Shown here in pieces: positions 31,245-47,567 of a stretch of 64,000 nt of DNA; the first letter of the stretch is position 1; each line of letters begins with the position of its first letter. A program made the position numbers and the translations under genes. The notes under the pieces were generated by a model. That model was not told where the DNA came from. It saw only the letters and a program-made list of their open reading frames with translations, and searched no databases. Source of the stretch: a phage; NCBI GenBank assembly GCA_026683435.1, contig GCA_026683435.1_4866.1; one strand, 5' to 3'.

Positions 31245-31340
31245 TCTCTTAATTCCTCTTTACGTGGGTTGTTTCACATAAGTTAGTGGACTGATGTAAA
31301 TAAAAAGGGACCCCCTCACCCGTGGGCAAGGAGGCAAACC

Positions 31341-32953: not shown

Positions 32954-33757
32954 TTACGCAAGGGTGTAGTGATGCGTGATTACACGATACTCTAACCCAT
33001 CGATAGAAGGAAACTCGTGCTCTATCGCAACACCCATGTTGACCTTCTTACCTTTCTGTCCCGCCAAATGCAAAATGGCGTGGTAGTGTTTTAGAAACTC
33101 TACCGAGTAGGCAATCGGGTCAAAAGTTTGGCAGCAGAATTGCTCAGTAATGATGCTCTTCGGGAACTCCTTATAAAGCATTAATGAAAACGGTTTCTGA
33201 CCGTGCAACCCCACGAACGCAGAGACAAAACCATTTGCTAATTCACCCAACATCTCACGCGTTCCTGCGTCTTTTAGCGTAGGTCGCATTAGATAGCAAA
33301 CATCTTGGGTTTGTTCTAATGACAATGTCTCCAACGGGACAACCGATGGGTCTGACGTAAAACCGTATTTCGGACTGACAGTAATCTCCACACGCTTCGT
33401 TACAGCTTCGAACCCCAGACGTTGGTACAATGCCGCATGTTCGGTGTCATGCGGAAAACAGGTAATATCAAGCATCTGCACTTCCAGGAGTCGCGTTAAA
33501 CGCTTCCACTCGTGGAACAGGGGCTCGGAAAGCACGTGCAACTCGTAGATGTAGTAAACAATACCTGAACGACATCCACGAAAATACATTTGCGCACGAC
33601 CGCTATTGCTCAACACTAACCAATGATCGTCTTCTTGGTCTGCGACGGGTCGCAAATCTTGAATCCGTTCACGGAGTTGCCCCAAGGTGGTCAATCGACC
33701 ACTAAACTCTACGGTCAGGTCATTTTTGTCCATACCGTATAGATTAAATAGTTGCAT
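32954..33757 (-). CDS. hypothetical protein (267 aa), possible GNAT-like N-terminal half
   Basis: ...TEHAALYQRLGFEAV resembles a GNAT C-terminal motif; weak. Confidence 0.5.
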   Translation of the reverse strand: MQLFNLYGMDKNDLTVEFSGRLTTLGQLRERIQDLRPVADQEDDHWLVLSNSGRAQMYFRGCRSGIVYYIYELHVLSEPLFHEWKRLTRLLEVQMLDITCFPHDTEHAALYQRLGFEAVTKRVEITVSPKYGFTSDPSVVPLETLSLEQTQDVCYLMRPTLKDAGTREMLGELANGFVSAFVGLHGQKPFSLMLYKEFPKSIITEQFCCQTFDPIAYSVEFLKHYHAILHLAGQKGKKVNMGVAIEHEFPSIDGLEYRVITHHYTLA

Positions 33758-33766
33758 GTTGGTACC

Positions 33767-34585
33767 TTATAAGGTGCCGATTAGCTCTGTCACCGCTTTA
33801 CGTTTATTCGCATCCGCAGACATATATCGACCTACTTGAACTTCGCGCCAAGTAAAGCCGTAATAAATATCGCGTGTGAGTAACGTATCTGCGTTTGACA
33901 GAACGATCTTATTGCCATCGGCAGCTTGTTGTTTTAAAAGTTTCGCTAACTCGCGGTGGTCAGCTTGTGAAAATTCCTTGCTGTGATACTGCGCATGTTT
34001 AGCCGTATCCGAAAGTGGGATGTATGGCGGGTCAGCGTATATCACTGCGTTAGATGGGCACTTATTTAAGATGTCGCGGAAGTCGGCGCAGAGCAGCTCG
34101 ACGTTGGTTTCCGAACAACGTTTCGCCCACGCCAGAATTTCCTCTTCAGGGAAATAGACACCGTTCGGATGTTGACCATAAGGCACGTTAAACCCACCCG
34201 ACTGATTGTATCTGCACAAGCCGTTGTAACCATGACGTGTAAGATACAGGAACATCGCAGCGCGCTGGAGATTAGGTTTCCCCGTGGTTGTCTCGCTGTT
34301 AAATTCCTCGCGTCGTTTCATGTACAGACCGCGGTCCGTCCCATTTGCAAAGAGCGCCTTTGCTTCCAGTATCAACGCCTCCGGACGATCGCGCGCCATG
34401 GTCAATAACTCGATTAAGTCCGGGTTCGTGTCGCCGAGAATATAGTTCGGGTATTTAGTGTTTAAAAACACTGACCCTGCACCCACAAACGGTTCAACGA
34501 AATACTCAGCATCTGGAAGCACCTGTAGCAGCTCGGGAAGTACGCGACTCTTACCACCCATCCATTTTAAAATTGGTCTTATCAC
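33767..34585 (-). CDS. dam: DNA adenine methyltransferase (Dam-type, GATC-specific family)
   Basis: KWMGGKSRVLPEL...VEPFVGAGSVFLNT...YILGDTNPDLIEL and IYADPPYIPLS (DPPY motif) closely match E. coli Dam blocks. Confidence 0.9.
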   Translation of the reverse strand: MIRPILKWMGGKSRVLPELLQVLPDAEYFVEPFVGAGSVFLNTKYPNYILGDTNPDLIELLTMARDRPEALILEAKALFANGTDRGLYMKRREEFNSETTTGKPNLQRAAMFLYLTRHGYNGLCRYNQSGGFNVPYGQHPNGVYFPEEEILAWAKRCSETNVELLCADFRDILNKCPSNAVIYADPPYIPLSDTAKHAQYHSKEFSQADHRELAKLLKQQAADGNKIVLSNADTLLTRDIYYGFTWREVQVGRYMSADANKRKAVTELIGTL

Positions 34586-34591
34586 CCGTTA

Positions 34592-35620
34592 TCATCCTCT
34601 CATGCCAGATTGAAACATATCACTGATAGTCAGCCTGGTTGTAGTCTCCACCGGAATGCTAGGTTCTTCTTTCAGCACTCGATCGGCGCGGTTCCCATTC
34701 ACCCGTTTCCAGCTAATAAGTTCAGGATCGCGTTTCAACGTTAGTGTACGCAGTACCTGCTTGCAACGTAAGATGTTACCGTACAGGTGATTTGCTGGAT
34801 TATTATCAGCAGCTGTTTCAATATAGACTTGGTCGGAATGACGTTGTGCGAAATCGAACAGCGCGCCCATTAGCCGGCGACCAATGCCACGTTTACGATG
34901 CGTAGGTGCAACCGTCAAGCCAGAGAGTTCAACGACGCCTGGCGCGACCAAACGCATTTGGGCAATGCCGACGATATCACGACCGTCTCGCCAAATCGCG
35001 GTTTCCACATTAGCGTGCTGAATTCTTGCTATCACGGTTTCTGCCAAAGGACCAATGTGTGTATAATAGCCACGAATGTCATACCCCAGTTCCTCGCAAA
35101 TTGCACCACTGACCAGATTCAGGATAACGTCTTTGTCGTCCTTGGAAAGTTCTGCGTATGCGTCACCAGAAATAATCTTGATTTCCGATGCAGTTATTAC
35201 TTTATCAAACAGTTTAGAATGACATGCCCAGACGATATCTGAAAGAACAAACCCTTTTTCGACCAGTTTTTGTTCAACATCGCCAGTAGGTGCCGGGCAC
35301 GACATATATTCGAAGCCTGTGTGGTCGAGCACAAGGGCTAAACCAACTTTATCGAATGCCCCAGGTACAAACTCCTCAAAATAGTGACAGGTTAGTGTAG
35401 GGTCACCGTGTCGATAGGTGGCCACTAAATAACCCTCCCAGGTTTCTCTATTCCGTACCACGTAAACAGAATAAGTCTCGTCCTTTAGAAACTCTTTTAG
35501 GCGGCGTGCTCGTACAGTATCGCTACCGACGTTATTTTGGAACTCGGCAGAGCGAATGCTGCTGCGGAACAATTTAGCCACAGTTTTCATTGTAATGCCC
35601 TCAAAAGGTAATGCTGTCAC
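34592..35620 (-). CDS. two-domain protein with C-terminal GNAT acetyltransferase domain
   Basis: GNAT motif A LTVAPTHRKRGIGRRLMGALFDFAQ; start may be GTG at 35620 or ATG at 35590. Confidence 0.65.
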   Translation of the reverse strand: MTALPFEGITMKTVAKLFRSSIRSAEFQNNVGSDTVRARRLKEFLKDETYSVYVVRNRETWEGYLVATYRHGDPTLTCHYFEEFVPGAFDKVGLALVLDHTGFEYMSCPAPTGDVEQKLVEKGFVLSDIVWACHSKLFDKVITASEIKIISGDAYAELSKDDKDVILNLVSGAICEELGYDIRGYYTHIGPLAETVIARIQHANVETAIWRDGRDIVGIAQMRLVAPGVVELSGLTVAPTHRKRGIGRRLMGALFDFAQRHSDQVYIETAADNNPANHLYGNILRCKQVLRTLTLKRDPELISWKRVNGNRADRVLKEEPSIPVETTTRLTISDMFQSGMRG

Positions 35621-35640
35621 AACATGAGGATAATGCGTAA

Positions 35641-35677
35641 AAAGACAAAAAATTAAGGGGTCCGAAGACCCCTTAAT
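35641..35677 (-). terminator. hairpin terminator after gene 35680..36336
   Basis: ttaaggggtc-cgaa-gaccccttaa preceded (plus) by aaaaagacaaaaaa. Confidence 0.7.
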
Positions 35678-35679
35678 GA

Positions 35680-36336
35680 TTACAGTTCAGGTTTGGAGAC
35701 AAGCGCCGTCCAAGTTTCAGAATGTTTGATACTGACGTGCGCCAAGCGATTCACCATGAACGCAAATTTGTCCATATGCTTCTGCACTTCGTTATCAGTC
35801 AGATTACCAGCGATAACTTTACCGTCTTTGGTCAGCACGATATAACCGTGGTTGTTGTCTACAGTAGTAAACGCCACGTCAATCGTAACTGGGTACAGTT
35901 TCACCAGCGTCGGCAGAATATGACCAACACGATCCGCCATACCCGCAAGCTGACCACAAAGGTCGGCTTTATCCTGCATGAACAAACGCAACATCGCTAC
36001 TGCAAACACCGGATAGATGTTTTCGATTTGCGTGTCGTAACGAGACAGACCGATAACTTCATCACCACGGGTTAGCACCATGTTGTTCAGATGCGCGCCT
36101 TTATAGATGGTAAAGCGTACGTCGCTACCAAGGTTAACCGCAACGATTTCCTGACCAAGGTCAATCGGATATTCGCGCTCGATGTGAATTGTTTTCAGAC
36201 GTTCACTGATTGGTACAATTACATCCGGTTTAGGAATGGTAGGTGGGCGTGGAGATTCGGTAGTACGCGTTTTTGTGGCTTTAATCGCGTTGCTTGCCGT
36301 TGAATCTTTTGCTACAGTTTTAGGGGCCTTCGCCAT
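35680..36336 (-). CDS. hypothetical protein (218 aa), N-terminus MAKAPK
   Basis: Track ORF extends to 36414; ATG at 36336 with AAGGAG SD. Confidence 0.6.
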   Translation of the reverse strand: MAKAPKTVAKDSTASNAIKATKTRTTESPRPPTIPKPDVIVPISERLKTIHIEREYPIDLGQEIVAVNLGSDVRFTIYKGAHLNNMVLTRGDEVIGLSRYDTQIENIYPVFAVAMLRLFMQDKADLCGQLAGMADRVGHILPTLVKLYPVTIDVAFTTVDNNHGYIVLTKDGKVIAGNLTDNEVQKHMDKFAFMVNRLAHVSIKHSETWTALVSKPEL

Positions 36337-36358
36337 GATATACTCCTTAAGGGTTATA

Positions 36359-36748
36359 TTAGTTATCCCAGAAAGCTGCTTCTGGAAAGTCGTGTTCAAA
36401 TGCCCGACGGTCATTCTCTACACGGTTTAAATGTGTCGGTAAAGACACACAGTTATTACAGATACAAAGTTCTTTATCCCCTTGACTGGGGTCAAAGTCG
36501 TGCCATTTCCACTCAACAGTATCCCGTTTCGGGAAGGTACCTTTGCAATCGTCGCAGACCACTTCTTCAGCTGCAATTTCAGCCTGCAGTTTTTCCCAGC
36601 AGTCTTCGCACATGTAATACGTTTCGCGGCCCCATGGGTCGCACTCTGCCGTATAGCGCGGGGCTATAGAGCCCACTTTAAGATGTTTACATCGATCATC
36701 CTCTTCCGTCATCACGCGACGGGTGATACCATTTACAAACCAATTCAT
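36359..36748 (-). CDS. Cys-rich zinc-ribbon protein (129 aa)
   Basis: Multiple CxxC pairs (CEDCW, CDDCKG, CICNNC). Confidence 0.55.
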   Translation of the reverse strand: MNWFVNGITRRVMTEEDDRCKHLKVGSIAPRYTAECDPWGRETYYMCEDCWEKLQAEIAAEEVVCDDCKGTFPKRDTVEWKWHDFDPSQGDKELCICNNCVSLPTHLNRVENDRRAFEHDFPEAAFWDN

Positions 36749-36759
36749 ATGTTTGCTCC

Positions 36760-37125
36760 CTACATTACTGCAGAAGGTTTACGTGCCATGACTTTGAGTC
36801 CTGTTTCTCGTACCCGGATAGGACAGTTATTCATGTAGTCGGTGCAGGATTCAATTTTGAAGCTATGGCGGCATTTGCCGTTGATGGAACGGTAAACGAT
36901 TTCGTAATTCAGGCGCAGTGTATCGGCAACACGCATCAGAGTTTCGATAGTCACGGCTTTCTCGCGTTCATTTTTAATCGCAGAGATTTGTGACGGTGAG
37001 CAGCCTACCAACAATGCAATGTCTTTCTGCGTAACATCCTTCGCAGTGACACGAGTAATAATGTAAGAGAGACGAACCAGAAATGCTTTCTTTGCCAACA
37101 CAACGGTTTGATGTTTAAAACGCAT
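36760..37125 (-). CDS. XRE-type helix-turn-helix DNA-binding protein
   Basis: TQKDIALLVGCSPSQISAIKNEREKAVTIETLMRVADTL fits the Cro/C1 HTH pattern; ATG at 37125 with AAGGAG SD, directly downstream of element copy 4. Confidence 0.7.
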   Translation of the reverse strand: MRFKHQTVVLAKKAFLVRLSYIITRVTAKDVTQKDIALLVGCSPSQISAIKNEREKAVTIETLMRVADTLRLNYEIVYRSINGKCRHSFKIESCTDYMNNCPIRVRETGLKVMARKPSAVM

Positions 37126-37205
37126 TAGAATACTCCTTTAGATTAATAGTCGATTAGAGAGTTTAGTAGTAACTCTCACCTAAGTAATATATATCTGAAA
37201 TTTAG
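37126..37205 (-). repeat. duplicated promoter-leader unit (copy 2 of 2; partner 18371..18450)
   Basis: Shares core motif, stem-loop (gagagtt...aactctc) and SD with the 18.4-kb copy. Confidence 0.6.
37177..37201 (-). promoter_or_regulatory. promoter/operator-like element, copy 4
   Basis: Plus cacctaagtaatatatatctgaaa (identical core to copy 1). Confidence 0.5.
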
Positions 37206-37243
37206 TGGAGTGGAAGCAAAAAGCATAAGACTGTTCTGATCTG

Positions 37244-37283
37244 TAAAAAAAGACAATACCCTCTTACCCGAAGGTAAGAGGGG
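37244..37283 (-). terminator. hairpin terminator after gene 37289..37912
   Basis: ccctcttacc-cgaa-ggtaagaggg preceded (plus) by aaaaaaagacaa. Confidence 0.7.
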
Positions 37284-37288
37284 TACAA

Positions 37289-37912
37289 CTAACCTGCCAG
37301 AATACGTTCAACGATACGCGCGGCTTGTAACGCTATATCGTCGTCAGCCGTAACACGCATCAGCGGGAACTTATCGCCGCCATCTGTGGTGATGTGGAAA
37401 GCAAAACGGTAATGGTCGCGTAAGGCGTCCCAATCGGTCTGTGAGCGCAGATACTTCGCTGTCAGTACCTCATCATCCCAGTTCTTACCTTGTGCCTCTA
37501 CGCGCTTCTTAAAGCGTTCTGTGGCGGTTTCGTAAGATACATCGGTTGCCACGTAAAGCTTTGGTGCGTTAATGTGGTCTAATACCCGCGAACGGAAAAC
37601 TTCCCCTTTACCATCGACGCCCTGGTAGACAATAGTCGATTGACAAAAACGGTCAAAAATAACGACATCGTGCTCTGGTACAACGAGGTCCATCGTGTAT
37701 TGGAAATCCAGACACATCGCTTTAGCAATGCGTTCGTTAGAAGCGTGCTGGATAACCAGAGAACGTGCACTAATACCGGCTTCAGTGGTATTCGTCGGGT
37801 GATTGACGATGATGACATTAACGCCAGCGGAGCGCAACATCGCTTGAATCATTTTCGCGAGTGTTGATTTGCCAGAAAAATCTGGACCATCCAGCGCCAC
37901 TGAGTTTAACAT
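37289..37912 (-). CDS. tmk: thymidylate (dTMP) kinase-like P-loop kinase
   Basis: Walker A DGPDFSGKST; DRFCQSTIVYQG matches the Tmk DR...ST.AYQG block; track start 37954 is GTG, first ATG at 37912. Confidence 0.65.
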   Translation of the reverse strand: MLNSVALDGPDFSGKSTLAKMIQAMLRSAGVNVIIVNHPTNTTEAGISARSLVIQHASNERIAKAMCLDFQYTMDLVVPEHDVVIFDRFCQSTIVYQGVDGKGEVFRSRVLDHINAPKLYVATDVSYETATERFKKRVEAQGKNWDDEVLTAKYLRSQTDWDALRDHYRFAFHITTDGGDKFPLMRVTADDDIALQAARIVERILAG

Positions 37913-37973
37913 TTTATTCTTCCCCAAAAGTTTAATTAATTGTAGTGGTGTCACAATATAGCGAGCATACGTA

Positions 37974-38009
37974 AAGAAAAAAAATAATAGGCACTCCGAA
38001 GAGTGCCTA
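37974..38009 (-). terminator. hairpin terminator after gene 38016..38780
   Basis: aggcactc-cgaa-gagtgcct preceded (plus) by an A-run. Confidence 0.7.
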
Positions 38010-38015
38010 GCTTAC

Positions 38016-38780
38016 TTAGAAGTCAACTCGCGTTTTCGATTTTTCCTCAATGCCTTCTGGCCATGAATCAATCCACGCTTGCAGCACCGCAGCTACACGG
38101 GGCTCAGCTAAGAACCTCTTCAATAACGGCCATGACTGGAGAGGATATAAAAACTTCAACGAAACTTGACCTGGGTCAAACTCATTCCGAACAGTAAACG
38201 GTAAACGGAAATCATAAGTTACCTGAACAACTGGCTCACTGAAAGGCTGGCCAAAGAAACTCAGGTTCCGAGTTACCGAAAGGACATGCCCTGCAAACTC
38301 ACCCCGAATCAGTTCGCTGCTCTTAACGGAGACAAACGAATAACCGTCGGTGTTCGGCTTACGCAGTCGTTCGGTTTTCATCACGTTAGCGAAGAAGTTA
38401 TCAATCACTTCTTCGACCAATACGTAATTCAGACACTCCCCACGCAACGCCTCGAGATTGTGTTGAGACCATGCATCCCATAGCGCCGGTTTTCTGGCAA
38501 TCAGCTTAAAGAACAGACGTGCAGAAACCGCCCGGAGTTCGCCGAGCATTTTCTTGGTCAGTTCAGTTTGATCCCAACTGGGGGCACAAAAGATTGTCCT
38601 TCCGCCGGAACCTACTAAGGTGGCACCGGTCACGCTGTTAATCAGTTTGTGACTTAACATGTGCGGAATACCTTTTGCCGTCAGGTCATTTTCGTCATAC
38701 GTGAATACGTAGCGATACTGACCATCTGCGGTAGGTACGGAAAGCCATTCTTTGGTTGCTGCTTTATTGAGTTTTGACAT
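38016..38780 (-). CDS. hypothetical protein (254 aa)
   Basis: ORF track; own promoter-like element (copy 5) and terminator. Confidence 0.6.
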   Translation of the reverse strand: MSKLNKAATKEWLSVPTADGQYRYVFTYDENDLTAKGIPHMLSHKLINSVTGATLVGSGGRTIFCAPSWDQTELTKKMLGELRAVSARLFFKLIARKPALWDAWSQHNLEALRGECLNYVLVEEVIDNFFANVMKTERLRKPNTDGYSFVSVKSSELIRGEFAGHVLSVTRNLSFFGQPFSEPVVQVTYDFRLPFTVRNEFDPGQVSLKFLYPLQSWPLLKRFLAEPRVAAVLQAWIDSWPEGIEEKSKTRVDF

Positions 38781-38876
38781 TTTGTTTACTCGCTTTTAAG
38801 TTTAAGTTGGTGAGTTTTAACCGACTCACAACGGCTTCTAGCATATGCTAAGGATGAAACGTAATTTTTGCACGTC

Positions 38877-38904
38877 TCCCTAAGATAACATCTATCCAAA
38901 AAAG
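38877..38904 (-). promoter_or_regulatory. promoter/operator-like element, copy 5
   Basis: Plus tccctaagataacatctatccaaaaaag. Confidence 0.45.
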
Positions 38905-38936
38905 AATAGAGTCGACCCACTCCCGAAGGAGTGGGT
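38898..38936 (-). terminator. hairpin terminator after gene 38942..39541
   Basis: cccactcc-cgaa-ggagtggg preceded (plus) by aaaaaagaatag. Confidence 0.7.
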
Positions 38937-38941
38937 ATAAC

Positions 38942-39541
38942 TCACTGATGATCAACTGTCGGTTCAGACCACTCTGGGACTGGCGGAAGCTTAATATCAG
39001 CTGCATACTCTGAAGGTACTGCAAGTGTGGTAAAGCCTCGACATGCTAAATAGTGCTGCATTCGTGCTGCCTGGTTTGGTGTATCAGTAATCACCAAATG
39101 GGTCTTACGCATAAGTGCGAGTACCGCCTGTCCTTCTTGCGGTGTAGGTGTACGTGGATGCTTACTGATAATGCTCATTAACCAGTCACGTGCAATACCG
39201 CCTACATTACAACTGGCCTCACGCAAATCAACCACACCTTCTCCCTCACCGACCACCTGTTTCGTGGAGTTAGGATAAAAGCGATACGGTGCACGACGAC
39301 GCTTACGACGTACTTCTGAAATAGCACGCCCGAGTATCATCTGTGCATGTTTAACGCTACAGCCTTCCACCGGTCTACGCATGTTCGTTACTAAACAGGC
39401 AATCTCTAGTACCTTACCGATTTGATAACGACGCTTAAAGCCATGACGACTTATGTCTACGTATTCTGGAAGATTGCCGTTTTTATTGATGTTTGCAACC
39501 GTAATCAAAAACAGCGAATCGAGAATCATCTCAGACATCAC
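38942..39541 (-). CDS. hypothetical protein (199 aa)
   Basis: ORF track. Confidence 0.6.
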   Translation of the reverse strand: MMSEMILDSLFLITVANINKNGNLPEYVDISRHGFKRRYQIGKVLEIACLVTNMRRPVEGCSVKHAQMILGRAISEVRRKRRRAPYRFYPNSTKQVVGEGEGVVDLREASCNVGGIARDWLMSIISKHPRTPTPQEGQAVLALMRKTHLVITDTPNQAARMQHYLACRGFTTLAVPSEYAADIKLPPVPEWSEPTVDHQ

Positions 39542-39550
39542 AGTCTCCCC

Positions 39551-39922
39551 TTAAAACCCCGCAACGACTGCAGCCATAAAGTCATGGACGACTTTACGTT
39601 GTTCTGCAAGCGGGTAGCCAAATTTAGTAATGTCGTGCATCCACCGAACTCGGTGGGTCCGACCATCGTGACTGAATGTGGAGCGCAGTACCAGGAAATA
39701 ATCCGCACTGACTCGAAAATGTAACGAGCAGCTGCCATGTTTGGCTCGCACGGTCAACTGAATACGCTTTACACCGCCGCCTAAATACTTAGCGTCGATG
39801 TCGACCTGGTCAACCTCCGGCACAGCCCGTAAGGCTTGCGCGACGTCTTCCAGGTCCCCGTTCTTGCTCACATTAGCGCCATGGAGCGCTGCGGTACAGA
39901 GTTGAAGCTCTCGATAGAACAT
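39551..39922 (-). CDS. hypothetical protein (123 aa)
   Basis: ORF track; overlaps next ORF by about 55 nt, start uncertain. Confidence 0.5.
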   Translation of the reverse strand: MFYRELQLCTAALHGANVSKNGDLEDVAQALRAVPEVDQVDIDAKYLGGGVKRIQLTVRAKHGSCSLHFRVSADYFLVLRSTFSHDGRTHRVRWMHDITKFGYPLAEQRKVVHDFMAAVVAGF

Positions 39923-40476
39923 CCTTCTAGTCTCCTGTCCCTCCCATAGTTCAAGGGATTTTTATAATACCAATCTTCATGCACAGGAGTCACGCGGATA
40001 TACCGGCTGTAAAACAACAAGTATTTGTAAAAGGTATCAATACTGACGTCTTTGTCCACTGATAAAAAGTAGTTTAAAGACGGGTCGTCTGGGAACGACA
40101 CAAAGATACCGGTGAAGTGCGCATCGGAATAGGGGCCATTAAACGGCGTCACTTCACACTTCAGGCAAGGTAAGCCAACCTGAAACGCGTTCTGTCCTGT
40201 CCAGTAGATTCCACGTGTGGTTGCATCGCGTGTTTTCCCATCGGGACGACAAACGATCCCTGCCATAAAACTGGAGCGTTGACTTGGGTCAGCCGCATTT
40301 AAGAACCGGATTATTCTGTCTACTGAAAAATATTTTAACGTGCCGGGCGGTAATTGCCAGAACTGTCCCATCGCACGTACCACCTTCCAACCAGGGCGAT
40401 TTCTTGCCCCGAAACGCTTTACACAAAAAGTATATCGCGAGCCAGTCTGATGTGGCACGCTGCGGACAGCCACCAT
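39868..40476 (-). CDS. hypothetical protein (202 aa)
   Basis: ORF track. Confidence 0.55.
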   Translation of the reverse strand: MVAVRSVPHQTGSRYTFCVKRFGARNRPGWKVVRAMGQFWQLPPGTLKYFSVDRIIRFLNAADPSQRSSFMAGIVCRPDGKTRDATTRGIYWTGQNAFQVGLPCLKCEVTPFNGPYSDAHFTGIFVSFPDDPSLNYFLSVDKDVSIDTFYKYLLFYSRYIRVTPVHEDWYYKNPLNYGRDRRLEGCSIESFNSVPQRSMALM

Positions 40477-40477
40477 G

Positions 40478-40954
40478 TTAAAGCTCCTTTACCATATCCT
40501 GGTATTCAGTTCGAAAACCGAAACGTTCATAAAACGCAATAGCACGGTCATTATTACCGAGCACGTTAAGCTGCATCCATGCGCAGCCTTTTGATTTGCC
40601 GTAATTTTCTACGGCTTCAATTAACTCATGACCGACGCCTTGAGAGCGAACTGATTCATCTACAAAAAAGTTATATACCCAGAGGAAACGTTGTCCCTTT
40701 TTGGTGTAGCCGAAGGTGATGAAACCAACAGCCACACCACGGTCATCAACGGCGCAAGCGCACAGCGTACCTTCACCCCAAACCTCCTCCAGTTTTGAGA
40801 TTTGATTAAACCCTTCACGACCGTTTAAGTCGGCGAGTTTTATTTTCTGATCGTCGTATAACTTGTTGTGTAGTCCTAACAAGTCGGCGTAGTATTTCTT
40901 TCCATACGGGGAGTTGGGCTTGGTGACAAAAACGATTTTCATCACACCCTCCAA
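40478..40954 (-). CDS. GNAT-family N-acetyltransferase (tandem paralog 1)
   Basis: Motif A RSQGVGHELIEAVENYGKSKGCAWMQLNVLGNNDRAIAFYERFGF; N-terminus MKIVFVTKPNSPYGKKY parallels the neighbouring paralog. Confidence 0.75.
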   Translation of the reverse strand: MEGVMKIVFVTKPNSPYGKKYYADLLGLHNKLYDDQKIKLADLNGREGFNQISKLEEVWGEGTLCACAVDDRGVAVGFITFGYTKKGQRFLWVYNFFVDESVRSQGVGHELIEAVENYGKSKGCAWMQLNVLGNNDRAIAFYERFGFRTEYQDMVKEL

Positions 40955-41436
40955 TACATCTGGTAAGCACCTACCTTAAAGCCAGCTTTGTCGTAGAGCG
41001 ACTTCGCGGCAGCGTTACCGGCGTTCACGGACAGGTGAACAACTGTACACCCTTTTTCCGTTGCGGATTTCTTTACCGCATCCATCAACGCGGTGCCGTA
41101 ACCTTTACCACGTGCGCTGCTGCTAACGACCAGTGAGGATACCGACATCATCGTCACACCCTCTTCAGTCATCGTGCGGTATTGCGCAAAGCCATACAAG
41201 ACACCGTCGTCCACGACCGCCAGTAAACGACCCCGGAAGCGCTCGGCTAACGATTTAGCCGGCGTAAAACGGACATTAATACCCGTCTCTTTTCGATAGC
41301 TTTCTATTTCGCTTTTGTCCAGCTCGTTATAAAGCGCGAGGATATCTGTGGAATATTTCCTGCCGTTAGCCGTGTCTGGCCCCACTATGGTAATAATCTT
41401 CATCAGTTCACCTCGGCCAGCGATTGCTTCGTCCAC
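40942..41436 (-). CDS. GNAT-family N-acetyltransferase (tandem paralog 2)
   Basis: SARGKGYGTALMDAVKKSATEKGCTVVHLSVNAGNAAAKSLYDKAGF; N-terminus MKIITIVGPDTANGRKY. Confidence 0.75.
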   Translation of the reverse strand: MDEAIAGRGELMKIITIVGPDTANGRKYSTDILALYNELDKSEIESYRKETGINVRFTPAKSLAERFRGRLLAVVDDGVLYGFAQYRTMTEEGVTMMSVSSLVVSSSARGKGYGTALMDAVKKSATEKGCTVVHLSVNAGNAAAKSLYDKAGFKVGAYQMYWRV

Positions 41437-42536
41437 TCCATTAGACCCTCCGCCACGCGTACCAGTGCCGTGGTGAATGCGTCTTCCATTGCCATTGCAT
41501 TGCGATAGCGCAGAGTAGCTTCCTTCAGCTCAGCCCCTTCCAGGTTCTTAAGCTCGGACTTCATCGCTTCCACTTCTTCGTAAATGCCGGTGTAACCCAC
41601 AACACGGTTCTTTGTTCCACGTGCAGCAATAGATTTGATAAGTGCTTCCACAGCCTCTATTGCTTTCCCACACTGATGCATATCCAGCGACTTAATGGTT
41701 TCACCATACTCACCGTCACGCGCAATTGCCCAACTGACCTTACCACTATGGTGCTCAACCACAACGATATTTCCAGGGACAGGAAAAGCTTCCACCTTTT
41801 TAAAGGGATCGATGATGCCAAGCAACCCAGCAGCACGCTTAACTGCCCAGTTCGTGGACTTGCTGATTTGTTTTAAGCCCGGCCCTTCGAATGCTTTGCT
41901 TTTCTTCAGAGCAGTGCGTGTGTAAACCGTGTACTTTTGCACGACGCCTTCGTACGCATTTGTTTGTTTAGAAAACTTAACACACGCTTCAAAATCGGGT
42001 CGATCTTCAAAGCAAATTTTAGACGTCCAGCTACTCGTGTGAACGTCGACCGCAGCGAGTGTTTTGTGGTCATCTAACAGCGACATTCGCGTTTTAAGCT
42101 TATTGAGCTTACGTTCCATGAAAGCAGCTTTCGAAGTTATTTCTTTCAAACGGTCGGCTTGTTCTTTCGCTAGCGCTTCCGCGAAATCGTAAAAGCGTAA
42201 TGCGAGCTTTTTCGAGAGTTTACCCGCGCCCTTTGCGGTTGCACCTAGTCCGGCACCCACTAACTTTCCAGTACCTTTAACAGCTTTCGCAGTAATGCGC
42301 CCTGCTGCGCGATGGATGCCAGCCCGCGGGTCAGTATCAGTCATAAACTGAGCACGCTCCATCGCTTCGCGCGATTCACGAGCAACCAACATATCTTCAC
42401 CGTCGTCGGTTAAGCACCAACGCTGACGAATCGCGCAAACCGCAGGGAAGTCGGGCTTAACTCCCAGACCTTCGAGTGCGACCAGGCGATCGTAGTCGTC
42501 AGTCAGGACTTCTAAATCTAAATCGAGCGTCGACAT
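41403..42536 (-). CDS. hypothetical protein (377 aa)
   Basis: ORF track. Confidence 0.6.
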   Translation of the reverse strand: MSTLDLDLEVLTDDYDRLVALEGLGVKPDFPAVCAIRQRWCLTDDGEDMLVARESREAMERAQFMTDTDPRAGIHRAAGRITAKAVKGTGKLVGAGLGATAKGAGKLSKKLALRFYDFAEALAKEQADRLKEITSKAAFMERKLNKLKTRMSLLDDHKTLAAVDVHTSSWTSKICFEDRPDFEACVKFSKQTNAYEGVVQKYTVYTRTALKKSKAFEGPGLKQISKSTNWAVKRAAGLLGIIDPFKKVEAFPVPGNIVVVEHHSGKVSWAIARDGEYGETIKSLDMHQCGKAIEAVEALIKSIAARGTKNRVVGYTGIYEEVEAMKSELKNLEGAELKEATLRYRNAMAMEDAFTTALVRVAEGLMEWTKQSLAEVN

Positions 42537-42546
42537 CCCCTGCTCC

Positions 42547-42819
42547 TTACATCTGCGTCAAAGTATAGTAGTAGTTGCGATGTGGCCATCGAACACACAA
42601 GGCAAATATCTCTCCCGTATCCGGCGTGGTGTAAACTGTCTGAATTGGGTCATTTTCTTGTGGTGCGACTTTCGAATCAAAACCGTGGCGTTCCAGGTAA
42701 TCGAAGAACTCATCCTCGGAGCCTGGGAACAAGCGAAGGCTAGTCACCTTCTTAATCGGTTTTGACGGCGTAGGGAAGAATGCTTCCCACAAACGACGAG
42801 CTAAACTGGTAGTTTGCAT
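42547..42819 (-). CDS. hypothetical protein (90 aa)
   Basis: ORF track. Confidence 0.5.
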   Translation of the reverse strand: MQTTSLARRLWEAFFPTPSKPIKKVTSLRLFPGSEDEFFDYLERHGFDSKVAPQENDPIQTVYTTPDTGEIFALCVRWPHRNYYYTLTQM

Positions 42820-42849
42820 AATAGCGACCTCTGATTAAAGGCAACGTGG

Positions 42850-43449
42850 TCATAATAAGCACAAGCTCTCAAGCCACAGATGTCCTTCAAGCGCATGGTG
42901 GTAACAAGGAATACCACACTGCTTAGCGTATTTCACGCCCATGGCAGTACCGCCGGTCGGATTACCTTGTTTATCTAAAGGCGCAGAGTAATAAACTGCG
43001 TCTACAGGCGTTGCTAAATCATCGCCCATAATTATATTCAGATTACGGCCATGAAGCGCCCAGGCGAACTCCTGGAGCTTTTCTGGCGCGGGATGAAGCT
43101 TACCTACTATCTCACGATAGCGGTCATCCTGAGGGATTACACGGAACTCTACGTTGGGATTCTGTTTCTTGAGCCAGAGCTTTTTCTCATCGGGTAGGTA
43201 ACAAATGAACTCATCATCCCACGCCACTTTCTTGCCGGTATCTTGGTCTATTGTATTCGCCCACTGTCGGGCAAATCGGAATTGCAATTGGTCTGGACCA
43301 CACCAGCAGCCGCCAGAAGAAAAATGAATCGTGTAATCTTTGGCGTGCAGCGCATTAAACCCACGTAACAATCGCATGTACATTTCAGACATGGTATCTT
43401 CATCAGTCTTCCGAGAACCGATTACCGCAATTTTATAAATCTTTTTCAT
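42850..43449 (-). CDS. DprA/SLOG-like Rossmann-fold protein (tentative)
   Basis: IAVIGSRKT...FSSGGCWCGPDQ resembles the DprA/SLOG GSR...SGG.G.D pattern. Confidence 0.35.
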   Translation of the reverse strand: MKKIYKIAVIGSRKTDEDTMSEMYMRLLRGFNALHAKDYTIHFSSGGCWCGPDQLQFRFARQWANTIDQDTGKKVAWDDEFICYLPDEKKLWLKKQNPNVEFRVIPQDDRYREIVGKLHPAPEKLQEFAWALHGRNLNIIMGDDLATPVDAVYYSAPLDKQGNPTGGTAMGVKYAKQCGIPCYHHALEGHLWLESLCLL

Positions 43450-43484
43450 GGACTTACCTCCTATACGGAGTGGACGATTCGTAA

Positions 43485-43527
43485 GAAAAAAATAAATACC
43501 TACCCTCGCTAAACGGGCGAGGGTAGT
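43485..43527 (-). terminator. hairpin terminator after gene 43531..44148
   Basis: taccctcgc...gcgagggta preceded (plus) by aaaaaaataaat. Confidence 0.6.
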
Positions 43528-43530
43528 GTC

Positions 43531-44148
43531 TTAAACAAACTCACGATAACGAAAACCGTTAAGCTTCGTGATAGTCACTTCTTCTAACAGCTTACGCCCC
43601 CAGAAACCAGCCAAGTCGTATTCCAGACCAGGCAGCGTTGTCTTGGTTAAGTCTTGGCCGATATGGTACGGTAGCGTAATGCGTGTGCGCGATTCGTAAA
43701 CAAATGATTCACATTCATAGACGAGGACGTATCGATCAGTCGGGATGTCGTACTCTACGTGGCATTGCGCGGGGTTTTCCCACGCCTTACTTACAACGAT
43801 GCCGCGTTCTGCACACGCCGATTCAAAACTGACCATTGCAGGTTCAGACCATACGCGCAAATCGGCCGGTTTACCTTTCGACAAATCAAACCATGTGAGA
43901 TGTTCAGGCTTCAACGTGATTATATCATTTAAGCTCAATTTGCGGTAACGCACAACCACATAGTCATCTGGCTTACTCTTATTAGTCAGCAAAGCACTTA
44001 CACGACCGTCCGGTTCCGGTGGACCATAACTCTCCACTCGGATACGTTCTGTGGTCAGGGGCGTATAAACGGTTTCAGCATTAAAAGCATTGACTAAATC
44101 GAGCAAGGTTTGACTATGATGGTGGTTAAAGTCAATAACAAAAGACAT
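43531..44148 (-). CDS. stand-alone N-module-like protein (205 aa; weaker match)
   Basis: ...DYVVVRYRKLSLNDIITL resembles module block 1; own terminator. Confidence 0.5.
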   Translation of the reverse strand: MSFVIDFNHHHSQTLLDLVNAFNAETVYTPLTTERIRVESYGPPEPDGRVSALLTNKSKPDDYVVVRYRKLSLNDIITLKPEHLTWFDLSKGKPADLRVWSEPAMVSFESACAERGIVVSKAWENPAQCHVEYDIPTDRYVLVYECESFVYESRTRITLPYHIGQDLTKTTLPGLEYDLAGFWGRKLLEEVTITKLNGFRYREFV

Positions 44149-44195
44149 GCCTCGCTCCTGGTATTTGATTAAGGGGGGTCATAATACTTCACAGG

Positions 44196-44231
44196 AAAAT
44201 AATAAACAGTATAGGGGCCGAAGCCCCTATA
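44196..44231 (-). terminator. hairpin terminator after gene 44240..44629
   Basis: ataggggc-cgaa-gcccctat preceded (plus) by aataataaacag. Confidence 0.65.
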
Positions 44232-44239
44232 CGCTGTGT

Positions 44240-44629
44240 TTAATAATCGTACAAAGGATACCGTGCGGAAATTTCTTTACCTACCCAAAAAGTTAACTGG
44301 TGGGTATTAACGCTGCGGTGTGTTCGTACTGACGGGACAATTGTCGCTTTAACTTTCGGCGAACACGTACCGGCATCTATTGGCTGGTACGTCTTGCGCT
44401 TTGTGTTAACGAGATAAAAGCCACCGCCCGGACACAGTTCAGAACGCCCGTAGTTGACCACGGCAAACTCACCCTTCTCCACTGTCACGACTGGTTCATC
44501 TTTGTCGCTAAATTTTACAGGTGCGTCAGTTTCCCACATCGGTTTATACTGCGGGAAGTCCTGAATGGTAAAGGCGTTTACTGGCGCAGTAACGCAGACT
44601 ATAAACACAGCTAATACAGCACGCATCAT
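44240..44629 (-). CDS. secreted/periplasmic protein with cleavable signal peptide (129 aa)
   Basis: MMRAVLAVFIVCVTAPVNA|FT: basic n-region, hydrophobic core, A-x-A-like cleavage site. Confidence 0.6.
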   Translation of the reverse strand: MMRAVLAVFIVCVTAPVNAFTIQDFPQYKPMWETDAPVKFSDKDEPVVTVEKGEFAVVNYGRSELCPGGGFYLVNTKRKTYQPIDAGTCSPKVKATIVPSVRTHRSVNTHQLTFWVGKEISARYPLYDY

Positions 44630-44631
44630 AT

Positions 44632-45108
44632 CTAGTCCTCTTCCAGATAGGGTAGAAGCCAGTCCATTTTCTCCAAACGGTGAATCATGTTGCGAGTGTT
44701 TGGCGATACCTGTAGGGCATCATGGAACTGTTTTTTGAAGTGATGCCAGTGATAAGAGAAAGGTTTTGTTGGATAGCCCGCTTCCTTGAGAACTTCTTCC
44801 CACTCCAACCTCTGGATAAGGTGCTCGTCGACCAAAACCTCAACTAAAGCCTTCCAGGCACTCCGACGAAAATGCCGGGACAACCGACGTTTTAAATCGG
44901 CATAACTTTTTCTTTTACTGGACCGTATTGCTGGTGATGTCTTACTGTGATGAAAAGAACGTCTCGTAAGATTCAGAATCTTAACAGGAGTGCCCCTAAG
45001 CGAACTGTCTGCAATATTCAGTTCATGCTGAGGAACAAGCTCCACACGGCGGATGACGTTTATACGGGTTCCATCCGTATCTCGTGTTTCGTAAGCAACA
45101 CGTATCAT
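44632..45108 (-). CDS. basic hypothetical protein (158 aa)
   Basis: ORF track; R/K-rich. Confidence 0.55.
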   Translation of the reverse strand: MIRVAYETRDTDGTRINVIRRVELVPQHELNIADSSLRGTPVKILNLTRRSFHHSKTSPAIRSSKRKSYADLKRRLSRHFRRSAWKALVEVLVDEHLIQRLEWEEVLKEAGYPTKPFSYHWHHFKKQFHDALQVSPNTRNMIHRLEKMDWLLPYLEED

Positions 45109-45125
45109 TATACACTCTCGCTCGT

Positions 45126-45611
45126 TTAGACGAAATGACCTTCTGCCATCGAAAGAAAAATGGGAACGCTTTCAGCGTAATGAGTTAAAAACTTTTCCTC
45201 CGGTGGCGTGTGTGACGAAATAACATTGTAGTTCGTCATACGAAAATACCGTTGGCCGTCAGCAGCAATATACCATCGGTCAATCTGGAAGCCTTGTTGG
45301 TGAAAGAATCCTAGCGCGGGAATGTTGGTCGGGTGAACACGACAGCTGATGTGTTTACGATCGGAGTTCTGCTGAAGATACTTAAGCATAAATCTGCCGA
45401 CACCGCCCCGCCGCGATTCTTCGGGCACTACCATATAGACCAAATGGCCAGGTTCCCATGCCATGATTCCCCGCACGATATCATCCTCAACAAACATCGT
45501 GAGTTTAATAGGCTCCTCGCGGATACTGTTTAAGTCGCGCACCCATTCAACCAGTTCAGGATAAACATTCGCGGGAATCTTATCCTCGACCACATTAATA
45601 ACAAGCATCAC
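45126..45611 (-). CDS. GNAT-family N-acetyltransferase
   Basis: Motif A VVPEESRRGGVGRFMLKYLQQ and ...ALGFFHQQGF. Confidence 0.65.
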   Translation of the reverse strand: MMLVINVVEDKIPANVYPELVEWVRDLNSIREEPIKLTMFVEDDIVRGIMAWEPGHLVYMVVPEESRRGGVGRFMLKYLQQNSDRKHISCRVHPTNIPALGFFHQQGFQIDRWYIAADGQRYFRMTNYNVISSHTPPEEKFLTHYAESVPIFLSMAEGHFV

Positions 45612-46295: not shown

Positions 46296-46339
46296 ATAAA
46301 AAAATAAGAAGCCTCTTCTCCAGGAGGAGAAGAGGGCTT
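46296..46339 (-). terminator. hairpin terminator after gene 46342..46914
   Basis: agcctcttctcc-agga-ggagaagagggct (12-bp stem) preceded (plus) by aaaaaaataagaa. Confidence 0.7.
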
Positions 46340-46916: not shown

Positions 46917-47567
46917 CTATTTCCTCCGGCGTCTTCCTTTCCGCTTACCGGCCTTAGCTTTAGGAACTTTAACCTTGGGCGGAAGAAGACTATTTAGGTT
47001 TAATAAGTTGACCCTGACGAAGATATTGCCCACCGCCACGGCATCGATACTGTGTTCATCCAATACCGATAAGTCGCACCGGGTATGGTTCGCGTAGAGT
47101 TTGGTCACCGCTTGTTGCATATGCGATTTATCTGTACCCTTTGCTTCCACACCAACGTACGACTTCACAATAATAGGATTAAACCCATGGAGATATTTTT
47201 CGGGAAACACGTCCCAAAGCGTTCGCCGCAACATCAGTTGCAACTCCACCCCAGATTCGTACGCTGAGAGCTTAGCTCTTCGCATGAACGGTGTTTCGGT
47301 AGCGACAAAAGTCGGCCTTGCCAGTTTTAAAAACTCACGAAAGCGTTCTTCTAATTCTACCAAACGCGCATCGCGTTTCCCTACGCACTCACCAAAAGAG
47401 CCATTGTGCGTAGGGTCCGCAACATGAGCCGTGCCCGCCCAGACAACTTCACCTTGAGGTTGGCCAAATTCCCAGTCGATAACCGCCATCCCAAGATGGG
47501 CAGTACCGGGGTCAACAGCCGCAATCCTCACCATACTGTCGGGTAACCTCGGCTCAGGAATCAGCAT
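46917..47567 (-). CDS. RuvC-like Holliday-junction resolvase with polybasic C-terminal tail
   Basis: IAAVDPGTAHLGMAVID (compare RuvC IGIDPGSRVTGYGV); ...ATETPF...; C-terminal DEHSIDAVAVG; tail KAKAGKRKGRRRRK. Confidence 0.55.
   Translation of the reverse strand: MLIPEPRLPDSMVRIAAVDPGTAHLGMAVIDWEFGQPQGEVVWAGTAHVADPTHNGSFGECVGKRDARLVELEERFREFLKLARPTFVATETPFMRRAKLSAYESGVELQLMLRRTLWDVFPEKYLHGFNPIIVKSYVGVEAKGTDKSHMQQAVTKLYANHTRCDLSVLDEHSIDAVAVGNIFVRVNLLNLNSLLPPKVKVPKAKAGKRKGRRRRK

Follow-up and report, generated by a model that had tools for sequence, protein, structure and literature searches.

Clustered GNAT acetyltransferase genes of three families in a conserved region of an SPN3US-like jumbo phage

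The 64,000-nucleotide stretch of phage DNA analyzed here (the window; NCBI GenBank assembly GCA_026683435.1, contig GCA_026683435.1_4866.1) carries, between positions 32954 and 45611, four genes for GNAT acetyltransferases, which lie on the minus strand like all genes in 30-48 kb. In a megablast search of a phage collection, Escherichia phage vB_EcoM_Lh1B (Lh1B) gave the best match to this region (97.5% identity, full coverage), and SPN3US-like Salmonella phages came next at about 96%; 23 records span at least 80% of it. These matches identify the window as part of a Seoulvirus genome; jumbo phages of this kind resemble SPN3US, are related to phiKZ and have genomes of about 240 kb. An earlier note on this DNA was right to treat it as phage-derived. 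Mapped to the original SPN3US numbering, the genes are a gp104 counterpart that encodes a two-domain GNAT of 332 amino acids (aa) (34592-35590), a gp95 counterpart of 154 aa (40478-40942, referred to as A), a tandem neighbor of 153 aa (40942-41403, referred to as B), which has no SPN3US counterpart and is annotated in Lh1B, and a gp88 counterpart of 160 aa (45126-45608).

Each of the four genes exceeds the curated cut-off of the Pfam model Acetyltransf_1 (PF00583; 20.7 bits). The match is strongest for A (open reading frame (ORF) 40478-40954; E=1e-17, 65.0 bits) and B (ORF 40942-41436; E=2e-17, 63.7 bits), followed by the gp104-like gene (ORF 34592-35620; E=7e-14, 52.5 bits) and the gp88-like gene (ORF 45126-45611; E=1e-5, 26.2 bits), whose match is the weakest of the four. 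In the gp104-like protein the domain occupies residues 206-280 of the 342-aa ORF, in agreement with the C-terminal position proposed in the earlier note. The acetyl-CoA pyrophosphate-binding loop, scored as [QR]xxGx[GA] after strand beta4, is intact in all four, reading RKRGIG in the gp104-like protein (34880-34897), RSQGVG in A (40631-40648), RGKGYG in B (41095-41112) and RRGGVG in the gp88-like protein (45396-45413). Profile and motif searches thus support a GNAT domain and an acetyl-CoA site in the four genes that the earlier note had called clear. The genes themselves were correctly located, but their starts were placed slightly too far upstream, at GTG or TTG codons, as homologues begin at the ATG codons at 35590, 40942, 41403 and 45608. 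By PHROG assignment the proteins fall into three families, 8663 (gp104-like), 3810 (A at E=2.5e-59 and B at E=9e-25) and 7861 (gp88-like, E=4e-78). All four are under purifying selection, with dN/dS values of 0.04-0.13 over saturated synonymous divergence.

The density of GNAT genes was previously described as unusual, which is borne out for their clustering and not for their number per genome. GNAT models match exactly 4 of the 77 non-overlapping ORFs in the window by Pfam scan and, among the matches listed (25 of 27 families in one batch), none of the 175 ORFs scanned in the other 176 kb of Lh1B. On this basis, the GNATs of the genome are confined to 11 kb that hold 18 consecutive genes. In a simulation, the placement of four GNATs within 18 of 252 genes has p~0.001, or p~0.011 when the tandem pair is counted as one locus. 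With 1.6% of genes encoding GNATs, the excess over an approximate, E. coli-like frequency is not significant (Poisson p~0.07). Jumbo phages in general have "numerous GNATs" (PMC7824862).

The clustering is real but old, and reflects conservation as opposed to a recent pile-up. In Erwinia phage Caitlin, gp88-, gp95- and gp104-like genes are found at 86.7, 90.6 and 97.8 kb, with the order and spacing seen in the window. Genes of the gp88 type are present in 69 phage records and those of the gp104 type in 58, both sets including Erwinia and Cronobacter jumbo phages. A metagenomic contig with approximately 70-76% amino-acid identity (L011) carries all four GNATs, including B, in unchanged order. 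The gp88, gp95 and gp104 lineages therefore keep their order across genera, with the B copy restricted to SPN3US-like phages. The earlier description as an accessory region does not hold in the sense of an island peculiar to one strain, given that the three lineages recur in this order in Erwinia jumbo phages.

The gp88-like gene is an allele of the SPN3US gp88 gene. Its product is 98% identical to the protein of PDB entry 7DQG (E=4e-108), with 3 substitutions in 160 residues, and at all three positions 7DQG has the SPN3US gp88 residue. The two share genomic position, GNAT core, RRGGVG loop and a C-terminal extension beyond the core, and differ in nothing of substance. In the 2022 work of Ki et al. 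on the structure of SPN3US gp88, the authors reportedly found very narrow specificity. The title of the structure paper (J Microbiol 60:746, PMID 35781628), as it appears in a later reference list, names a complex with acetyl-CoA (PMC12328618), and the citing passage credits the work with the proposal that N-terminal acetylation plays a role in phage proliferation (PMC12328618). The window protein would be expected to work as a domain-swapped GNAT dimer with bound acetyl-CoA and a narrow range of substrates.

A and B form a tandem pair of common PHROG membership and different history. A is 100% identical to SPN3US gp95 (YP_009153389), 72% identical to YP_007237670 of Erwinia phage phiEaH2 and 53% identical to YP_009292176 of Caitlin, and is syntenic with both Erwinia enzymes, directly downstream of the internal head protein gene. 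Both Erwinia enzymes make N-acetylspermidine in E. coli ΔspeG (Li et al. 2023, PMC9992855). A is thus an orthologue of enzymes with demonstrated spermidine N-acetyltransferase activity, while B is only a paralogue, at 30-32% identity to the Erwinia enzymes and 29% to A. In a neighbor-joining tree, B branches outside the whole A clade, Erwinia enzymes included, as its sister. The duplication would then be old, or B was acquired from another jumbo phage. An origin of B outside phages was also considered and set aside, as only close relatives, on phage-sized contigs, were seen and no bacterial source was found. Sub-threshold matches hint at different substrate classes, with diamine acetyltransferase 2 and PaiA among those of A, and phosphinothricin, methionine-sulfoximine, tabtoxin and arsinothricin acetyltransferases among those of B, none of them at family cut-off.

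The distribution of B is narrow. At 99% identity or more, the only deposited phages seen to have it are four, Lh1B, EC001, JN03 and 1252, and a few phage-sized contigs also carry it. It is missing from SPN3US and most Seoulvirus genomes; relative to SPN3US, precisely one gene length has been inserted or deleted. B overlaps both of its neighbors at TGATG junctions, its start with the stop of gp94 and its stop with the start of A. Comparison with a second contig (L012) reveals that B is a recombination mosaic with a breakpoint inside the gene. Its 5′ third is 100% identical between the two, while the 3′ two-thirds (approximately 40943-41235 versus L012:6170-6462) are 58-78% identical, against 95-100% DNA identity in the flanking genes. 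Correspondingly, dS in this comparison is 0.97 for B and 0.06 for A and gp88. The dN/dS of B is 0.12, indicating purifying selection.

The gp104-like protein consists of a conserved N-terminal domain of about 135 aa followed by the GNAT domain (Pfam core at approximately 34781-35005). The N-terminal domain contains invariant motifs, including LDHTG, that are retained even in homologues of 30% identity. An AlphaFold2 model built from 6 sequences has a mean pLDDT of 45, with only the GNAT part confident and the N-terminal half below 50. The best structural neighbors of the model are tandem-GNAT proteins, namely VipF, MshD and the glucosamine N-acetyltransferase of C. acetobutylicum. MshD (1OZP) and VipF (6WQB/6WQC) are tandem GNATs whose N-terminal GNAT is non-catalytic; their sequence identity to gp104 is 9-16%, and gp104 differs in having an N-terminal domain with its own invariant LDHTG motif. 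The model makes a tandem GNAT architecture for gp104 a lead; a search for internal duplication between its N- and C-terminal domains found nothing. At the extreme C-terminus (34592-34606), after a variable linker, a G-x-R-G sequence is invariant in Seoulvirus homologues and in that of Erwinia phage SNUABM_29, and is missing from distant homologues. It could be a short docking motif.

Directly downstream of the gp104-like gene lie the counterparts of SPN3US gp105 (33767-34585, minus strand), a D12-class N6-adenine DNA methyltransferase (Dam; Pfam MethyltransfD12, E=1e-53), and of SPN3US gp106 (32954-33757, minus strand), a protein of 267 aa assigned to phrog_9941 with no assigned function. The gaps on either side of Dam are 6 and 9 nt, and the three genes belong to one predicted transcription unit. 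The order of two-domain GNAT, Dam and gp106-like gene is kept in three very distant jumbo-phage contigs (L017:3081-5825, L018:2235-4910 and L019:3180-5801), in which gp106 is 23-31% identical and the GNAT homologues have Arg in place of the first Gly of the acetyl-CoA loop. By synteny, the gp106-like gene is always directly downstream of the Dam gene. In phiEaH2, Dam and gp106 are present and the gp104-type GNAT is missing.

The gp106-like gene had been put forward as a possible fifth GNAT, which our results do not support. The protein has no Pfam or NCBIfam match and lacks the [QR]xxGx[GA] loop. An all-protein HMMER scan (13 matches) raised the number of full-length family members to 12, the most divergent at 21% identity, and for none of these was there a GNAT or other Pfam match at E<=10; the family profile likewise had no match among PDB sequences. 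The AlphaFold2 model (4 sequences) has a mean pLDDT of 42 and is unusable, with Foldseek matches at the level of noise. Alignment of gp106 to a GNAT profile with hhalign gave weak alignments in register with the GNAT core at a probability of 6-33%, compared with 96% (E=1.3e-9) for a positive control of the gp104 C-terminal domain against the gp95 family. The weak alignments take in an 'LGF' motif, which is probably what the earlier note had picked up. If gp106 is GNAT-like in fold, it would be a pseudo-enzyme. The more specific idea of a double pseudo-GNAT is plausible from the order of secondary structure elements but, being undemonstrated, was rejected as a finding. Comparison of the N-terminal with the C-terminal half of gp106, and of gp106 with gp104, found no duplication.

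Predicted terminators divide the region further. A search for hairpins followed by a T-run found 27 sites, compared with 17.3 +/- 3.8 expected. The strongest are seven intergenic hairpins of 9-11 bp on the minus strand, which is the coding strand (46312-46335, 44209-44232, 43500-43526, 37988-38009, 37259-37282, 35652-35677 and 31310-31335), each followed by a T-rich run and five of them with a TTCG loop. These look like phage terminators and would mark about six units, namely gp87-gp88-gp89-gp90, gp91 alone, gp92-gp93-gp94-B-A-gp96 through gp99, the thymidylate kinase gene, gp101-103, and gp104-Dam-gp106 with downstream genes. The hairpin at 35652-35677 separates the last two. The four GNATs would thus be distributed over three predicted transcripts.

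Taken together, the locus probably encodes four separate, functional acetyl-CoA-dependent N-acetyltransferases of three families, conserved in the nucleus-forming jumbo phages of the SPN3US and Erwinia groups and not forming a single system. Given three families and three predicted transcription units, different substrates are the natural reading. In this respect the multiple targets proposed in the earlier note are plausible and partly supported, while no evidence for protein targets was found. Of its suggested functions, small-molecule acetylation gains from the polyamine activity of orthologues in one family (PMC9992855) and loses from the negative result for the protein identical to A. Anti-defense acetylation found no backing, as PADLOC gave no meaningful match and no AcrVA5-like or toxin-type protein (TacT/AtaT) was among the PDB sequence matches listed at E limits from 0.001 to 0.1.

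A possible mechanism can be outlined for each family. In the A/B family, acetyl-CoA would be held in the beta4-alpha3 loop and the acetyl group passed to a primary amino group on a small polycation. Such acetylation would neutralize the polyamine charge, leaving the infected cell with less active polyamine. B would most likely use a different small-amine substrate from A. The gp104-like enzyme, which would be co-transcribed with Dam and gp106, presumably combines an active C-terminal GNAT with a non-catalytic N-terminal domain that chooses the substrate, as in MshD or VipF. Li et al. propose that early depletion of spermidine could impair CRISPR adaptation and restriction fidelity (PMC9992855), and De Mattos et al. 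found that polyamine accumulation inhibits phage genome replication in Pseudomonas (PMC9992862). Such inhibition would give a phage a direct reason to acetylate polyamines.

Several results weigh against this picture. First, the SPN3US protein YP_009153389, identical to A, gave no N-acetylspermidine over background in E. coli BL21 ΔspeG (PMC9992855), and as this is the sole assay, a polyamine role in the window phage is unproven. The Seoulvirus A clade differs from both active Erwinia enzymes by an H to Y change (WVHNF to WVYNF), a D to G change (VLDNN to VLGNN) and a T to N change. The Seoulvirus enzyme may accordingly have shifted or lost its spermidine activity, and loss of the acidic residue could plausibly affect polyamine binding. 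Second, all scores against NCBIfam models of named enzymes, PaiA and RimI included, are far under their cut-offs. The PaiA model NF053587 has a cut-off of 250 bits; A reached 23.6 bits and B was not among the matches listed, so that neither qualifies as a SpeG/PaiA equivalog. For gp104, the similarity of the N-terminal domain to a GNAT profile is not significant (hhalign E=0.13, against 1.3e-9 for the control), and with a pLDDT below 50 in that domain the analogy to MshD and VipF is weakly grounded. Finally, the transcription units derive from hairpin prediction only, and host sigma-70-type promoters are not enriched (17 found, 20.2 expected), although no such enrichment is expected because the phage has its own RNA polymerases.

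One alternative is that the GNATs are protein acetyltransferases that seize or disarm host machinery, acting on RNA polymerase like Rac, on ribosomal proteins like RimI, or on a defense nuclease like AcrVA5. AcrVA5 is an anti-CRISPR protein that acetylates Cas12a. Rac of phiKMV-like phages acetylates the alpha subunit of RNA polymerase (PMC7824862), and the likeness of both to the enzymes studied here is that of phage members of the GNAT superfamily that acetylate a host component. Roles of this kind are predicted for jumbo-phage GNATs in a comparative study (PMC7824862), the N-terminal acetylation role credited to the gp88 structure work points the same way, and RimI is among the best NCBIfam matches of all four proteins, ranking first for B and gp104 and second for A and gp88. 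Against this, the RimI scores are 23-47 bits with a cut-off of 86, AcrVA5 and toxin-type GNATs are absent from the PDB sequence matches as described above, as are notable PADLOC matches, and the only experimental data for these families concern a small molecule (PMC9992855). Takeover of host RNA polymerase is also less needed, as Chimalliviridae have their own RNA polymerases (PMC13282480). Protein targets (RNA polymerase, ribosomal or defense proteins) are possible for gp88 and gp104, but as an account of the cluster we consider them unlikely.

A more speculative extension of the small-molecule reading treats A and B as a diversifying 'substrate-specificity cassette', in which B would act on a host-made small amine other than spermidine, possibly a polyamine danger signal or an antimetabolite, and three or four of the GNATs would form a small-molecule counter-defense toolkit. 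The proposal draws on the age of the paralogue B, on its precise loss or the replacement of its catalytic two-thirds by a divergent allele between phages with 95-100% identity elsewhere, and on its best, sub-threshold matches to phosphinothricin, methionine-sulfoximine and tabtoxin acetyltransferases. We think it improbable in this full form. A further possibility is that some copies, A above all and perhaps B, are merely carried along, redundant or in decay, and contribute nothing to infection, as the inactivity of the A-identical protein on spermidine (PMC9992855) and the dispensability of B, missing from SPN3US and most Seoulvirus genomes, might suggest. The reading frames and acetyl-CoA loops are all intact, the dN/dS values are low even over saturated synonymous divergence, and the genes are conserved across genera, all of which make this reading very unlikely. 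Least likely of all is a DNA-modification module of gp104, Dam and gp106 in which the GNAT acylates bases like Mom or regulates the methylase: the trio does share short gaps and one terminator-bounded unit, persists in very distant contigs and has a precedent in the Mom-family GNATs of other jumbo phages (PMC7824862), but the whole region is collinear, with thymidylate kinase and HTH genes syntenic as well, so that the linkage may be passive, phiEaH2 retains Dam and gp106 without the GNAT, gp104 fits ordinary small-molecule or protein GNAT models with no Mom-like family among its Pfam and NCBIfam matches, and the Mom enzymes reported from group 2 jumbo phages are typically nuclease fusions (Iyer et al., PMC7824862).

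The reading of four separate N-acetyltransferases carries little weight as a discovery, because the genes are annotated, one crystal structure exists and one family has been assayed. All four are annotated as acetyltransferases in close relatives, with dozens of such entries in GenBank and RefSeq. The SPN3US papers and supplement covered by a literature search for virion or proteome data make no mention of gp88, gp95 or gp104. The new points are the confinement of the GNATs to 11 kb among the matches listed, the old, mosaic and dispensable nature of B, the candidate inactivating substitutions in A, and the negative outcome for gp106. It remains of interest that a whole clade of nucleus-forming jumbo phages keeps three GNAT lineages at fixed positions. 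A phage pair of polyamine-acetylating enzymes would, if true, represent a counter-measure to polyamine restriction (PMC9992862). B, present in the window phage but not in the model strain SPN3US, is the obvious next candidate, and the H to Y and D to G changes between A and the active Erwinia enzymes are candidate residues for the difference in spermidine activity.

Other features of the region and its relatives were noted. The gene upstream of B (41403-42536, minus strand) is the counterpart of SPN3US gp94, an internal head protein (phrog_2497, E=6e-88) that was found by mass spectrometry of SPN3US virions and is a possible substrate of the gp245 protease (PMC10052503). In contig L011, two additional genes that are missing from the window lie between the gp93 and gp94 homologues (L011:7529-8858), one encoding 328 aa and the other 107 aa with a match to Pfam BubE (PF20137). 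Downstream of the cluster, the 216-aa product of an ORF at 46917-47567 weakly resembles RuvC (E=0.035), and a DUF488-N3a protein is also encoded among the window ORFs by Pfam scan. Several of the SPFM genomes in LR535903-LR535917 align to the region only as some 40 short fragments that cover 20% of it at 99% identity, and the same records give odd chimeric 'proteins', which suggests scrambled or low-quality assemblies. At the other end of the window, between approximately 472 and 17464, 13 of the 77 ORFs match Pfam DUF7941, and the first of them (472-2649) also matches the GP38 tail-fiber adhesin family; together these ORFs look like a long array of paralogous tail-fiber-like genes.

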